This document shows, piece after piece, positions 2,700-7,450 of a DNA stretch of 8,356 nucleotides. Position 1 is the first letter of the stretch. Every line of letters starts with the position of its first letter. Location: positions 1 through 8,356 of the forward strand of contig JBJCIZ010000963.1 of NCBI GenBank assembly GCA_051294375.1. The letters are read 5' to 3'. The stretch comes from Paraspadella gotoi. Lineage: Eukaryota > Animalia > Chaetognatha. The position numbers were made by a program, and so were the translations under genes. Below the pieces are notes generated by a model. That model did not search any database and was not told the origin of the DNA. It saw only the letters and a program-made list of their open reading frames with translations.

Positions 2700-3040
2700 T
2701 ATTTAAATAAACATTACGGCGCCTGCGATCCCAGTCTTCAGCACTGTTTCTCTCCCGACGGCTTTTCCCTCTCCGTTAGGAGGGGGTTCTTTTCACCTTC
2801 CGAGAACGTCGCCGTTTCAAAACAGGTTGATTTGCAAGTGATTTAAAATTTATTTGTTTAAAATCCTCATAGCGGTAATGCATCAACTGTTTTTTGCAAG
2901 AAGGATCACTTTAAAATACTGACCTTCAACAGATAATTAACTTTTTGGCTATGATTAATTTATTATTTGGTTGAGAAAAAAGTGACGTGCAATATAATGA
3001 GATCATTGAAGAAACACAATAATTGTAAGTGTGCTTCGTA

Positions 3041-3700
3041 TCAGGCTGTACCACCGTGCTAAAAGCGCCACATCCCACTTAATTGCAAGGAGGCAACCGG
3101 GCTTATATTATTTAAGGTCCTATATTTAGAATTTGCTTGACAACGAATGTCTCTCATTCGCGTTGCCGCCTCCCACCCCTATACTTCACCTAGAATCCCT
3201 ATTTCTAATGTTCCCTTAATTGAGGGAAAAAACTATTGACTAATTGATTATTTAATTTCCTTTATTTAGAATTTGCTCTGACGACGTGTCTCTCGTTTGT
3301 TTCGCTGCCTCCGAACCCGATGACGTCGAATCTCGTCTCCAAAGTTTGACAGCGTCTTTTACTTCACTTCGACGCCGAATTCGTCTCGCTCAACGATGTC
3401 GGCAGATCCTTTTCTGGCGTTTTCAGCAAACCTCCGTCTCCATCGCCACCGCCTCCGTCGCCATCTTGGTTCCATTATTCCACGCCACCACCGTCGCCTC
3501 TTCCTGGCACTTGAGGGCGACAGGGTCGTTCGCCCTCTCTTAAAGAAGAATTCTACTTTGGGCATCGCGTCACCGCCCCTCCCGCCGACGTTTGGGGCAG
3601 CGCTCGCCGGGCAACGCTTGACGATTGGGCTCGCTCCGTGCCGCCGCCGCCGCCGCAACCGCCTTCCCAAGACCAACTATCACTGCGAACTACTAACTTA
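3041..3700 (+). pseudogene. Decayed non-LTR retrotransposon (Jockey/I-like) reverse transcriptase remnant
   Basis: Motifs appear in RT order across frameshifts: SG-VP..VL (3041-3061, GVPQGSVL-like); ttt gct [ct] gac gac = FA-DD (3272-3285); VESRLQ...RIRL...QILF; SV-RHLGSII (3454-3479, SVKYLG-like); HRRL..W (3489-3507, DRRLTW-like); RPLLKKNSTL (3531-3560, YPLL.R.S.L-like); RLTIGLAP (LRIITGAP-like). Confidence 0.6.
3073..3346 (+). repeat. Diverged ~140-bp tandem duplication covering the RT FADD-like motif
   Basis: attatttaaggtcctatatttagaatttgcttgacaacg (from 3107) vs attatttaatttcctttatttagaatttgctctgacgacg (from 3247), offset 140 bp. Similarity extends left (tcccacttaattg / tcccttaattg) and right (gaatccctatttctaatgt / gaatctcgtctccaaagt). 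Confidence 0.85.
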
Positions 3701-3775
3701 ACCATTAATTTTTTTTATTTAAATGGTGAAATTCGGTTAAATTTTTTTTCTTCCAATTTTGATACTTTGGTGTAG

Positions 3776-3820
3776 AATATTATGTTAATATTAATATTAT
3801 GCTATTAATATTATGTTAAT
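3776..3820. repeat. Short AT-rich tandem repeat (aatattatg x3)
   Basis: aatattatgtt-aatatt-aatattatgct-att-aatattatgtt-aat read directly. Confidence 0.6.
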
Positions 3821-3924
3821 TAAATTTTTTTAAAAACAAAGTGAAGCGTTCAAATCAGACTCACGTTTTTTATCATATAAATAGAAGTTTTTATGGTGGA
3901 CTAAAATCCACCAACCATTCATCA

Positions 3925-3997
3925 GCGGCCATTGGTGCCAGAGGCAAGTCATTCGCCTCCCAACCCAAAGGTCCGGGGTTCTAGCCCGGTGGTTGCC
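3925..3997 (+). pseudogene. tRNA-Gly(CCC)-like sequence (SINE head / pseudo-tRNA) with Pol III internal promoter
   Basis: 73 nt. Acceptor stem gcggcca (3925-3931) / tggttgc (3990-3996); A-box-like tggtgccagagg (3933-3944); anticodon loop ctCCCaa (3957-3963) within tcgcctccca, as in eukaryotic tRNA-Gly; T-stem ccggg/cccgg with B-box-like ggttctagccc (3977-3987). The anticodon stem has two C-C mismatches and the D stem is poor, so it is not a functional tRNA. Confidence 0.8.
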
Positions 3998-4005
3998 TAA
4001 TGCCT

Positions 4006-4078
4006 AGCAGTTAAGAGGGACGGGGCACTTAACACGCCTGTAACACGTTACAGCCTGATCCGAAGCTCAGGGACTGCT
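4006..4078 (+). ncRNA. Twister ribozyme-like fold, type-P5 circular permutation (P2 damaged, P1 vestigial)
   Basis: P5 agcagtt (4006-12) / gactgct (4072-78); AA; P2' gagg (4015-18); conserved GA (4019-20); T1' CGGG (4021-24); U|AA (4030-32); P2 cac (4033-35); T2 GC (4036-37); P3 ctgtaac/gttacag (4038-53); P4 cctga/tcagg (4054-58/4067-71) enclosing TCCG-AA-GC. TCCG pairs with CGGG (T1) and GC with GC (T2). Confidence 0.75.
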
Positions 4079-4497
4079 TATATTGAATGGTTCTGTCACT
4101 AACACATAACAATTATGACTGTCTCTTCAAGGCTTTCTTCTTGAGAAAATCAACTTCAATAAGTTTTTTGATGAAACAGGTGTGCAATCACCACCTATGA
4201 AAAAAATATATTTTATACTACTTACTTTATTGCCAACCTTAATCTAAGCTGAGAAGTGCATCAGGACGTTTTAACTCTTAATTCCAAACATTAACTGTTG
4301 ACGCTCATATATTTCAACGATTTATTTTCTGAAATAAAATTTGTAATAAAGTTTTTTAACCATACGAGTGTCATTTTTTTTCATTTTTGCGTAACGTGAT
4401 TTCTATATGTCGCTCATAAGAAACCAAAAACAAATAACCGACCGCAAAATCCTGGTCTGTGAACGAAAAAATAAGCTGAGGACGTCGAGGTGACCAG

Positions 4498-5120
4498 TAA
4501 GGCGTAGTAAATTTTCTAAATTTAACTTTAATTCTTTATAATTTGCAAAATTCTAGAAGTGAGGAACGAACAACATTATATTAATGAACATTTATGTAAT
4601 TAAAAAATTATAATAAATTTACAATTTTCGCAGTAGGCCATATACTAGTAGTAAACCAATAAATGTTAAAATTTCAAAACAGTTTTTTTGTAAGATTTTT
4701 TTGCAGATTTGGATTCGTCATAAAAAGTTGATAAAAAGAAATATAATTTCTTTTTGAAAAATTCCTTCATTAAATGGGTCAACACAATGAGAAAAAGCTA
4801 TATTTTAAGCTGAAAATTAACTTTTTATATATTAAATATAGTTTTTTTTATTTTTAACCCACTTAATGAAGAATTTTTAAAAGGACTTATATATTTTCTT
4901 ATATCAACTTTTTACGAGGAATTCAATCTGCAATCAAAATTAAGAAAAGCCTATTTTAAAAATTTTTTCGATTTTATAAGGTTAGTACTATATATAAATA
5001 TAGCCTCCTGCGAAAATTAAAAAACATAAAATTAATTTTTTTTACAAATTAATGTTCACTGATGGTATGTTGTACATAATTGACTTTTAGATTTCGTACT
5101 GTAACTTTCACTACGCCTTA
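4498..5120. mobile_element. hAT-type non-autonomous fold-back MITE, 623 bp
   Basis: Perfect 11-bp TIR taaggcgtagt (4498-4508) / actacgcctta (5110-5120); 8-bp TSD gtgaccag (4490-4497) / gtgaccat (5121-5128). Internal arms are inverted copies: 4623-33/5008-18, 4701-09/4925-33, 4721-33/4902-14, 4765-73/4863-71; centre ~4820. Confidence 0.88.
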
Positions 5121-5595
5121 GTGACCATGTGAGTCGGTTCTCGGCCCTCTCAAGATGATTCATGTCGCGTCCTACGCATATGATCCACTGGACTCGACCG
5201 GGGGCGACGGTCGCGGCCGGCACCGGGGAACCTGGGCGGCGCCAACGCCGGAGGCAAGTTCGGGGCAGAAGACGCGCGCGTTGCAAAGTAATAAATGTTA
5301 TAAATTAGGGCAAGATGAAAGCCGAAGAATCATCAAAGAGTGCCACGGGAGTCGCTCGTCATCCAATTGTTGACCAATTTATATTAAATTATCATTCTAA
5401 TCACTAATTTAAGTTTTAACCAGTAATCATATTACCTCATTCTCTTAATTGTTTCCTCTATGAATATTTTCTTTCCGTCGTCAGCTCCGTAATTTTCCGT
5501 CTATTCTAATTGGCCCGGAATGAGGATTCGGCTTTTACCGTCGATTCAGTCGGACTAAGGATTAGTACTACGTAGTTCAATTCTATGTTAACCAC

Positions 5596-5840
5596 TTTTT
5601 TGCTCGTTGGAGCGGCGAAGTGATCCCTCGAAGGCGCTATTTTTCGTCGTTTTTTGCCCTATACTTTTGAACGCGAGGACCGATTTTAACGAAATTTTAT
5701 TTTCAGTAAACTAGACGTAATTCCACGTCGTATCGGTACCAACATTTATCGAAATCGAGCCACCAGGAAAAAAGATCAGATGTTTTTTCTTAAAAACACA
5801 AATATCAATTTTAGTTGACTATCCTTTTTTCATTTACAAG
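5596..5840 (+). mobile_element. Possible short non-autonomous DNA element fragment (Helentron-associated/DINE-like or MITE)
   Basis: T-run start followed by gctc...gaag...gcgctatt, then acttttgaacg and ccgattttaacgaaattt (5680-5697) with an imperfect inverted partner at 5741-5758. These are wordings I recognise as common in insect short DNA elements. Flanked by tgttaaccactt (5586-97) / tgttaactactt (5841-52). Confidence 0.3.
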
Positions 5841-5899
5841 TGTTAACTACTTAATTACTACAATTAACATTCCAAAAAGATCGAAACTTGACAGACAAA

Positions 5900-7080
5900 C
5901 CTCGCCAACCCGAATAGGGGACCGAAACAGAAGATCCCTCTCCTCGAGGCCACTCGCCTGCATTCTTCCACCGCTGGTCCGTCTCGAACACATCCTGTTC
6001 CATCGAGTTGCTTGCGAACTAGTCATTTGCGGCGGATACAATAGTCGAGAACGACCCGTCCTCCCTGATCGCAGATCGGCAGCACGACCGCTCAGGCGAC
6101 GCCAACTCGTCTCGCTACGCTCGGTCGTCGAGCTCGGCGAGGCGGCGGGGAGGCGAAGGAGGCACGCTCGACAGAGAGCCGAGACCCGTCTCCATTTCGA
6201 TCCGGAGATGTGCGACCGATGTAGCGGGCAATGGAGTCGGAGCCCGCTGGATCGCCCGGGCTACCTCGGAGAACCCGGGGGCCCGGTGGAAAATTTCCCT
6301 TTTTTTTCTCTCTCTTTCCTCTCTCTCTCCGCTTCCCCCGTCGCCCCGTGGCGGATCCCGAACAGGGCGGGGGCGGGGACACTACTGGGCCCTCGGTCCG
6401 GCGGCTGGTTGGGGGGGGGGGCATACGGGCCGCTCCGCCGGACACGACGTGGCTCGTTCGCGCTCACCTCCGACTCTCCTCCTACGGAGCGTCCGACACG
6501 CCACTCCTCGTCCGCCTTTTCCTAAAGCGGCGACGATACTCTTGCTGTACGCCCTAAAACGTACGGACTTGCCCTCTCCTCCGCACTTTGTCTCGGAACG
6601 CCTCCTCGGGCTCCCGAGGGCGGCCCGATCCCGATGAAGTACTGCTGCTTTAATGTTTGAGTATTGTGCTGGCCAGCGCGCGCTGGCGCTCCCCGACCGG
6701 CGACACGAGGCCACCGCCTGTCGCCCGAGTGGTAGTCAATGAATGAATATTGAGAGAGACACGCTCCGACGCGACCCATGGCTGCGCGATCGACCGTAGC
6801 CGATTCTTGACTGTGAGGCTCGCACGCCCCCGAACCTTCCGGCACCTGGACGAAATCGCCGATCCCGCGCGCTCGGAGCAATGACTGGGAAGACCTGACG
6901 GGACCCGACCCCGGCTCATTCGACGGGGCCCACGGCTCCCACCCGGAGCCGGCCTCTCTCGCTGTCAAACGTCTTCGACCGCATACAGCCGGCAGCTTCC
7001 AAATAATCAATCCCTGTGAAGTGAAAGAGCTCGCGCTCTCGGGCCTTCCGCGACGCGACTAAGGTGGCAGGTGGCACAGT
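5900..7080. promoter_or_regulatory. GC/CpG-rich non-coding island, candidate cis-regulatory or 5'-UTR region
   Basis: Abrupt shift to GC- and CpG-rich sequence. Contains a Rel/Dorsal-like ggaaaatttccc (6288-6299), a (CT)n GAGA-type tract (~6306-6330), GC boxes (6365-6378) and CAGGTG-type E-boxes (6844-6849, 7068-7073). Overlapping ORFs are R/P/G/A/S-biased with no recognisable domain. Confidence 0.35.
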
Positions 7081-7450
7081 TCGTCATACTATACTGAGAG
7101 AACCTCGCGAACCCTTTTTCTCGAAAAATAGGAAGGTTTTATACACTAGTAACACTTCTCTTACTTATCACCTTCGTTAATCATACTTTCATCATACCTT
7201 TGCGCCCTATAACCCTATTATCTTATTTCGCTCACCCAACCGTTCATCAATATTAATCACCCGCCTCCGTCTTTTTTGATGTCTTTCTGGAAGGCACACA
7301 CATTTAAGAGGGTCATCAAACTATTAATTCAAAATTTACAATCAGTATTCTTAAAGAACTAGGGCGACTGACATGTTACCCTGACGAAGACATCGCTTCC
7401 GGCGAACCTCTGCACTCTTGTACCGTTGATCTCAGGCGCGACACCACGAT

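Follow-up and report, generated by a model that had tools for sequence, protein, structure and literature searches.

A high-copy 238-bp repeat joining a tRNA-like head to a twister-like motif in type-P5 order

A dispersed repeat with two fixed ends

The window (the whole 8,356-nt stretch of DNA that was analysed) looks eukaryotic and is AT-rich with GC-rich islands, and comparison of 13 of its open reading frames with Pfam gave no match above the cut-off. Near its middle lies a repeat that carries, in order, a leader hairpin, a tRNA-like head, a twister-like motif and a tail; these features are listed in Table 1. Its extent was read from summed contig depth in four sequencing runs across the region 3800–4250. 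The depth over the repeat was ~1e6 in run X1, against 36–48 in the flanks, ~1e5 in run X5 (flanks 20–30) and ~1e5 in run X9 (flanks 6–50). Summed contig depth is not a copy number and is read here solely as thousands to tens of thousands, which suggests that copies of the repeat number in the thousands. A sequence-only reading of this DNA had proposed a high-copy family bounded at 3913 and 4115; the depth plateau and the fixed ends bear out the family and move its bounds to 3892 and 4129.

Among the 19 of 401 loose-end entries listed, loose contig ends of run X1 gather at the left edge (55 and 96 contigs at 3891/3892) and at the right edge (100 and 57 contigs at 4129/4130), and the flanks of different copies agree with one another at 0.41–0.50. 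Because loose ends pile up at both edges and the flanks disagree, the copies are dispersed with both ends fixed. In the three runs of organism A, only 0–4% of contigs continue into unlike sequence. No pile of contig ends was seen at the predicted cut (4030/4031) among the same 19 of 401 entries, and the 15 of 36 joints listed include neither a head-to-tail joint (4129 to 3892) nor a strand switch within the repeat. The right end at 4129 bears no poly(A), microsatellite or other simple-repeat tail, the 3892–4129 copy is flanked by no target-site duplication of at least 2 bases at any end offset within 2 nt, and an inverted-repeat search found no terminal inverted repeat between its two ends, which read TA...CA. 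In the consensus, the flank letter adjoining the left family end (3890–3892) is G in 2 of 2 runs, and that adjoining the right end (4129–4131) is G or C in 3 of 3; these end-adjacent letters echo those of the opposite end, which could reflect a target preference or a circle junction. Just left of the repeat, at 3816–3879, depth is raised in run X1 only (200–640 versus 36), marking a separate low-copy repeat.

The family is young, with most contigs 90–100% alike. At least half of the sampled words of 3700–4400 are present in 9 of 12 sequencing runs, all from organism A, and a small share occurs in one run of a second organism (B), from which two contigs match 4069–4129 and 4092–4129 at 90–95% and both stop at the right end of the repeat. 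Within the window, an 18-letter motif of the repeat matches twice, against a mean of 0.01 by chance, owing to a second, decayed copy at 3007–3105. This copy is truncated at its 5' side and is missing the cut site, P2 and the stretch matching 4070–4100; it shares the right end of the 3892–4129 unit and shows a double change in T1 (C-G to A-U, in this one copy). A 31-nt direct repeat (90%; 3107–3137 and 3247–3277) adjoins its truncated end.

Several other structures were noted elsewhere in the window. Inverted repeats of 48 nt (79%), 644 nt apart, give 1965–2704 a MITE-like appearance, and three nested inverted repeats (26, 37 and 25 nt; 84–85%) at 4618–5023 outline a fold-back or MITE-like element of ~405 bp. 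C-rich, degenerate telomere-like units were seen by eye on the plus strand at 1340–1430. At 5800–7100 GC content rises to as much as 66%; this island holds long open frames that lack a Pfam match and might represent either a promoter region or the remains of an element.

Table 1. Coordinates of the repeat, its parts and related features in the window
Feature	Position	Strand	Description	Evidence
Whole repeat unit	3892..4129	+	238 bp, dispersed, high copy, non-coding	contig depth plateau, loose ends
Leader hairpin	3894..3913	+	perfect 7-bp stem, upstream of likely Pol III start	mean pair probability 0.91
Basal stem, 5' strand	3913..3921	+	A3913 is the inferred Pol III start	9/9 pairs with 4084-4092; start inferred
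tRNA-like head	3925..3997	+	degenerate, tRNA-Gly(CCC)-like; anticodon arm unpaired at two places	ARAGORN, tRNA covariance model
Linker	3998..4005	+	length variable in family	contig variants
Twister-like motif	4006..4078	+	type-P5 order, closed by P5 (4006-4012 with 4072-4078)	descriptor, folding
P2 3' strand to T1	4015..4023	+	P2 3' strand 4015-4018, predicted general base G4019, A4020, T1 strand 4021-4023	descriptor, folding
Vestigial P1	4024..4029	+	6 nt, one G.U pair and at most one more	phage comparison, folding
Predicted cut site	4030..4032	+	U4030/A4031, then A4032	descriptor
P2 5' strand and T2	4033..4037	+	P2 5' strand (3 nt, imperfect); T2 dinucleotide 4036-4037 pairing with 4065-4066	folding, contig variants
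P3 hairpin	4038..4053	+	6 bp in the 3892-4129 copy	folding, contig variants
P4 and L4	4054..4071	+	P4 (5 bp) with 8-nt loop L4 4059-4066	descriptor, folding, own model
Basal stem, 3' strand	4084..4092	+		folding, contig variants
Tail	4093..4129	+	weak hairpin 4093-4121 with A/C-rich loop (13/17)	folding, contig ends
T-run	4164..4169	+	first run of at least 4 T after unit start; flank, outside repeat	sequence
Second, decayed copy	3007..3105	-		inverted-repeat search, motif match

The tRNA-like head and the twister-like motif

The head was recognised most clearly by a tRNA covariance model built from 15 bacterial tRNAs, which ranks 3925–3997 first of its 11 matches in the window (19.1 bits, E 4.4e-5; the next match scores 5.1 bits), in line with the tRNA-derived, Gly(CCC)-like Pol III head that the sequence-only reading had placed at these positions. 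The Rfam tRNA model gave no match there at E up to 5–10. ARAGORN found no tRNA in the window at its default setting and called 3925–3997 a tRNA-Gly(CCC) pseudogene only at the 85% threshold, a chance-level call since 100 shuffled windows yielded 90 hits at that threshold. The acceptor stem is complete and the anticodon loop reads CCC, while the anticodon and T arms are damaged, as is expected of a promoter remnant. Positions 3933–3944 are A-box-like and 3978–3987 are B-box-like, the latter one letter off the consensus. The best ARAGORN pseudo-tRNA of the window lies elsewhere, at 5508–5595 (90% threshold; 10 hits in 100 shuffled windows), and the tRNA model does not match it as a whole.

A Pol III start is expected about 20 nt before an A box, and A3913 sits 20 nt before the A-box-like motif; judged from this distance, transcription likely starts near A3913. 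The family begins 21 nt upstream of that position, so that its left end, 41 nt before the A box, stands at about twice the usual Pol III distance. Together with the lack of a simple-repeat or poly(A) tail and of a duplication at this copy, this apparent early start leaves an identity as a textbook SINE unsupported. There is no run of four T inside 3892–4129, and Pol III transcription of this copy would terminate at the T-run in the right flank.

The leader hairpin begins 2 nt from the left end of the repeat. A perfect 9-bp basal stem joins the leader (3913–3921) to the tail (4084–4092), with a pair probability of 0.9, and was equalled in 34 of 5000 shuffles. Its pair 3917/4088 is A-U in the 3892–4129 copy and G-C in 95–99% of contig depth; both changes fall at CpG sites, and decay could also be their source. 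A candidate antisense hammerhead core near 3917–3924 was rejected since its second core strand is absent, and the hammerhead families gave no match in an Rfam search of the window. Between head and motif, the 8-nt linker described from sequence holds for the 3892–4129 copy and fails for many others, which omit 3, 4 or 7 letters in the region 3994–4003. At the other end of the unit, the right end lies 99 nt past the predicted cut, just after the weak hairpin with its A/C-rich loop.

The motif at 4006–4078 was identified with a type-P5 descriptor, which was written after the candidate was known. On both strands of the window it finds one match, at G4019, A4031, GC4036 and the loop at 4059, with a P4 of 5 bp, a P5 of 7 bp and a P3 of 6 bp, and it places the predicted cleavage between U4030 and A4031, where the sequence-only reading had also predicted it. 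The strands follow the order P2'-GA-T1'-P1-UAA-P2-GC-P4, as in type-P5 twisters, and L4 fits the twister loop pattern U-NNN-AA-GC on the 5-bp P4. Both pseudoknots pair in Watson-Crick fashion (T1 3 of 3, T2 2 of 2). With the strand order, G4019 and U4030-A4031-A4032 all in place, the claimed twister ancestry in type-P5 order is supported; G4019 is the predicted general base, a role that belongs to established twister chemistry as described in the available text of PMC11662667. The four-letter match between UCCG and CGGG that had been drawn for T1 survives as three Watson-Crick pairs (4021–4023 with 4060–4062), the fourth position being A4020.A4063. P1 is confined to 4024–4029. In the plain register P2 forms 1 of 3 pairs in the 3892–4129 copy; the majority letter at 4034 raises this to 2 of 3, and one more pair would need a bulge. 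The P3 hairpin of this copy appears 3 nt short compared with most copies.

Among the 40 of 42 variants listed, none falls on G4019, A4020, U4030, A4031, A4032 or the T2 letters, and G4062A, at up to 7% of depth, is the only one that touches a pseudoknot. In P5, A4006G (up to 34%) and C4008T (67% in one run) lead to wobble pairs, and two minor variants each break a pair. Because the family is young, this unvaried core is weak evidence of selection.

With the descriptor post hoc, its core alone is found in 20 of 2000 block-shuffled windows and in 3 of 20000 element shuffles, and the core with P3 and P5 in 0 of 2000 block-shuffled windows. The descriptor recovers 110–115 of 133 phage loci that had been retrieved by twister patterns. 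Rfam twister models, on the other hand, gave no match in the window or its parts at E up to 5–10, the 3892–4129 copy included, whereas they score 11 of 11 phage motifs from the first twister pattern above the cut-off. This miss is attributable to anatomy, namely the 6-nt P1 and the imperfect P2. P1 measures 14–30 nt in 74 of 74 phage type-P5 matches with full T1 (80 examined, L011–L090), and the P1 hairpin of ~8 bp that is typical of RF02684 is absent from 4006–4078; a 3-nt P2 strand also occurs in natural type-P5 members that pass the Rfam cut-off. Membership of the Rfam type-P5 family, which the sequence-only reading implied, is thus not supported. That reading had also named the lack of a covariance-model hit as grounds for rejection; Rfam indeed gives none for the 3892–4129 copy, and this is outweighed by the structural and homology evidence. 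A type-P5 model of our own, built from 40 of 81 non-redundant phage motifs, ranks 4009–4071 first of 11 matches, weakly (12.9 bits, E 0.011) and in the wrong register outside P4/L4.

Folding is neutral as to function. The folding energy of the unit is no better than that of shuffles (z −0.9 to 0.1), and a ribozyme-compatible fold makes up 1.8% of samples, against a median of 2.2% in 126 natural motifs, 60 of which are equal or lower. A competing rod (G4019-C4060) accounts for 2296 of 5000 samples, which is no evidence of an off state since natural motifs show a similarly low ribozyme-compatible share. According to the available text of PMC11662667, high-throughput assays of type-P1 twisters tolerate defects in P1, P2 and P4 and do not tolerate catalytic or pseudoknot defects. 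In our judgement, majority-type copies would probably cleave to a measurable degree, and measurable cleavage by the 3892–4129 copy itself is rather doubtful.

A pattern scan for relatives gave one chance match in viral contigs and none in metagenomes, and a looser pattern gave 11 metagenome and 12 genome loci, with the twister descriptor in 0 of the 23. Among the viral contigs, one of 5.5 kb (L028, 1–2254) carries five type-P5 twister pattern matches spaced 420–540 bp apart.

How the repeat may move

The repeat is a real feature. The reading that we favour, at a probability of about 0.4, is that of an Sm-alpha/retrozyme-like Pol III retroposon that uses a twister and is likely moved by a Penelope-type enzyme. 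From the observed repeat, its ends, the tRNA-like head and the pairings of the motif, we infer the transcription, circle and copying steps as follows. Pol III would start near A3913. At source loci arranged head to tail, which would be rare, cleavage at two sites would free a 238-nt monomer that extends from 4031 through the junction to 4030. P5, P2, T1 and the basal stem would keep the 5'-OH and cyclic-phosphate ends of this monomer together. RtcB could seal these ends into a circle. A Penelope-type reverse transcriptase/endonuclease would then begin internally, always at 4129 next to the A/C-rich hairpin, and copy one turn, giving products of unit length that have the 21-nt leader and no tail. 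Dispersed monomers, that at 3892–4129 included, would be dead-end daughters.

Sm-alpha RNA is reported as a permuted monomer that runs from cut to cut (PMC6765202), animal retrozyme RNA as a cut-to-cut monomer circularised by RtcB (PMC7229834), and the Penelope element PAc as a template on which reverse transcription starts internally, in an AC-rich stem-loop 85–92 nt after the ribozyme cut (PMC11167929). Animal retrozymes have been argued to be non-autonomous Penelope derivatives, with a monomer share that ranges from 0 to 1 (10.64898/2026.07.22.740005). A Penelope-type partner fits the repeat because its tail-less end is fixed 99 nt past the cut, close to the distance in PAc.

Such a monomer would also remove three difficulties. 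A single copy that relies on its own Pol III promoter cannot pass on the 21 nt that precede the putative start. An active ribozyme behind the head would part the promoter from the tail and truncate the element, as the available text of PMC5786205 points out. Finally, a type-P5 twister would be unfit as a 5'-end cutter of the Perere-3 LINE kind, since half of its core precedes the cut; unlike the type-P1 ribozyme of Perere-3 it could not be rebuilt from the 3' product alone and so would need a redundant or circular context. All three vanish if the real RNA is the permuted cut-to-cut monomer. The 6-nt P1 may be the remnant expected if a type-P1 ribozyme had its end joined to the 5' end made by its own cut.

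The favoured reading draws on the fixed ends, the unrelated flanks, the lack of a tail repeat and of a duplication at 3892–4129, the unvaried catalytic positions, the tolerated defects in P1 and P2, the unit size and the precedent of Sm-alpha for joining promoter to ribozyme. It is weakened by the lack of tandem or strand-switch joints among those listed, given that Penelope-type insertions and retrozymes, as far as the available sources describe them, mostly occur as tandems, whether partial or full; by a left end sharper than is typical of Penelope-type copying; and by a P2 that is imperfect even with majority letters, a near-absent P1, no Rfam match and a weak match to our own model. It requires tandem source loci to be scarce and copying to stop after exactly one turn, and the partial tandems and inversions typical of such elements are unseen among the joints listed.

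An ordinary SINE with a passenger ribozyme is a serious, if unlikely, alternative: transcription would begin at about 3892–3893, a LINE or Penelope enzyme would copy uncut or nicked-but-paired RNA, and the twister, acquired from a partner element, would be slow or off. The tRNA head in front, the 3' end common to organism B, the 5'-truncated decayed copy with the same right end, and the dispersed monomers with no tandem joint among the 15 of 36 listed are all as this would have it, as are the imperfect P2, the vestigial P1 and a basal stem that would keep cut halves joined. The available parts of two reports add that SINE bodies often derive from the 5' ends of RTE elements, and that an active ribozyme behind the head would truncate the element (PMC5786205), and further that the RNA from which PAc inserts is uncut and that protein is required by the PAc ribozyme (PMC11167929). 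Such a SINE would not lead one to expect the missing tail repeat, the lack of a duplication at 3892–4129 or catalytic letters that are absent from the listed variants, and an RTE 5' end would not supply the P5 permutation. The left end also lies about twice as far from the A box as is usual.

An improbable alternative is the solo LTR of an LTR-retrozyme or TRIM-like element, with 3892–3912 as U3, the tRNA-like part as an internal Pol III promoter, a twister cut in both LTRs and insertion by integrase. It would account for the leader, for the lack of a tail and for the fixed position of the two ends. The ends TA...CA and the symmetric end-adjacent G or C, where A/T is the default (consensus letters only), suit it, and plant retrozymes share the design, with 4-bp duplications and solo LTRs, in the available text of PMC4918200. 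At 3892–4129, however, shifting the ends by up to 2 nt reveals no duplication of at least 2 bases, a primer-binding site is missing after 4129, and the combination of PBS, PPT and 4-bp duplication is lacking; the flanks are at single-copy depth and unrelated in the entries listed, and the decayed copy 3007–3105 is 5'-truncated. Less probable again is an element mobilised as DNA, in which a passenger of the rolling-circle HUH or tyrosine-recombinase kind, with a hairpin close to each end, would have picked up a tRNA-twister RNA gene. It would explain precise, tail-less ends without duplication, and of the two hairpins present the perfect one starts 2 nt inside the left end and the weak one lies towards the right end; no terminal inverted repeat joins the ends, though, the ends do not resemble those of Helitrons, and the basal stem, which starts at the putative Pol III start and shows a double change, points to a unit at the RNA level. 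That the twister is in truth a second decayed tRNA of a dimeric tRNA-derived SINE, a T-loop/D-loop contact mimicking the pseudoknot, is very improbable. ARAGORN draws 4006–4079 as a tRNA-Tyr-like pseudogene at the 80% threshold, the length and the 7-bp closing stem suit a tRNA, and the Rfam twister models miss the motif, but 100 shuffled windows give 520 hits at that threshold and 4006–4079 is absent from the 11 matches of the tRNA model down to E 10. This identity was rejected, the ARAGORN call being at chance level and the tRNA model silent; it would also leave P3, T2, the 8-nt loop and the likeness to schistosome twisters unexplained.

Should the Sm-alpha/retrozyme-like reading hold in full, the repeat could be the first twister-based retrozyme: a tRNA-promoted, Pol III-transcribed 238-nt circular RNA whose twister is P5-permuted and by nature P1-less, and from which copying of exactly one turn has produced genomic monomers that lack tails and number in the thousands. 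We put this forward tentatively, as an outcome somewhat less probable than the reading on which it builds.

Relation to known systems

In the open-access literature we found no tRNA-headed or Pol III repeat with a twister and no twister retrozyme; the 238-bp repeat itself may already be named in Repbase or Dfam, and the supplement of PMC11662667 holds ~2600 type-P1 twisters with contexts and may include relatives. The one documented job of a twister in animals that we found is cutting the 5' end of Perere-3 (available text of PMC8501958), and the retrozymes and Sm-alpha-type repeats in the parts of the literature available are all hammerhead-based. If the interpretation is true, a high-copy, tRNA-promoted element built around a permuted twister would mean that the ribozyme slot is interchangeable, and a natural P1-less twister missed by Rfam would mean that eukaryotic twisters are under-counted. 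With such a repeat one could also test directly how a short retroposon persists when cleavage separates its promoter from its priming end.

The closest sequence found is that of the T-variant twisters of Perere-3 (RTE) in Schistosoma (PMC8501958, available text). Compared by eye with one Perere-3 twister record, three blocks have 13/16, 21/26 and 9/13 identical columns, and P3 is the same. The differences keep pairing, as had been claimed for P4/T1: 4021/4062 in T1 changes from G-C to C-G and 4056/4069 in P4 from G-C to U-A, an A-U pair is added at 4058/4067, and a G.U in P3 becomes A-U. In the available text of PMC8501958, Perere-3 twisters are of type P1, stand at the 5' end of an autonomous LINE with target duplications, and cleave where the element begins; the motif at 4006–4078 has P5 order and a predicted cut in mid-element, and the repeat has no open reading frame. 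With the type-P5 twisters of RF02684 the motif shares strand order, GA, UAA, GC and the L4 pattern, and it differs in its lack of an Rfam match, in its 6-nt P1, and in carrying P3 and a closing P5.

Among short retroposons, tRNA-headed SINEs with RTE/Vingi-derived bodies likewise place a tRNA head before a body borrowed from a retrotransposon, but their bodies usually avoid the ribozyme-bearing 5' end and they have LINE-type tails; the available text of PMC5786205, from which this is taken, does not mention twisters. Animal non-LTR retrozymes and Penelope-like elements resemble the repeat as non-coding units of similar size with an internal ribozyme (available parts of PMC7229834 and 10.64898/2026.07.22.740005), 238 bp falling within the 150–450 bp given for animal retrozyme units in the available text of PMC7229834. 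A tail-less 3' end fixed ~90–100 nt past the cut, beside an A/C-rich stem-loop, is a further Penelope-like trait (PMC11167929, available text). As described in these sources, animal non-LTR retrozymes carry type I hammerheads and are defined by tandem arrays, whereas the motif here is twister-like; the words twister and tRNA do not occur in the available text of the preprint 10.64898/2026.07.22.740005. The nearest precedent, as the sequence-only reading also held, is the Sm-alpha/Sj-alpha family of schistosomes (PMC6765202, PMC2770079; available text). There the ribozyme is a hammerhead and the head is Gln-like, whereas here the motif is twister-like with predicted cleavage, the head is Gly(CCC)-like and no tandem copy is seen among the 15 of 36 joints listed; in both, a short, high-copy repeat unites a tRNA-derived Pol III promoter with a ribozyme, self-cleaving in the schistosome repeats.
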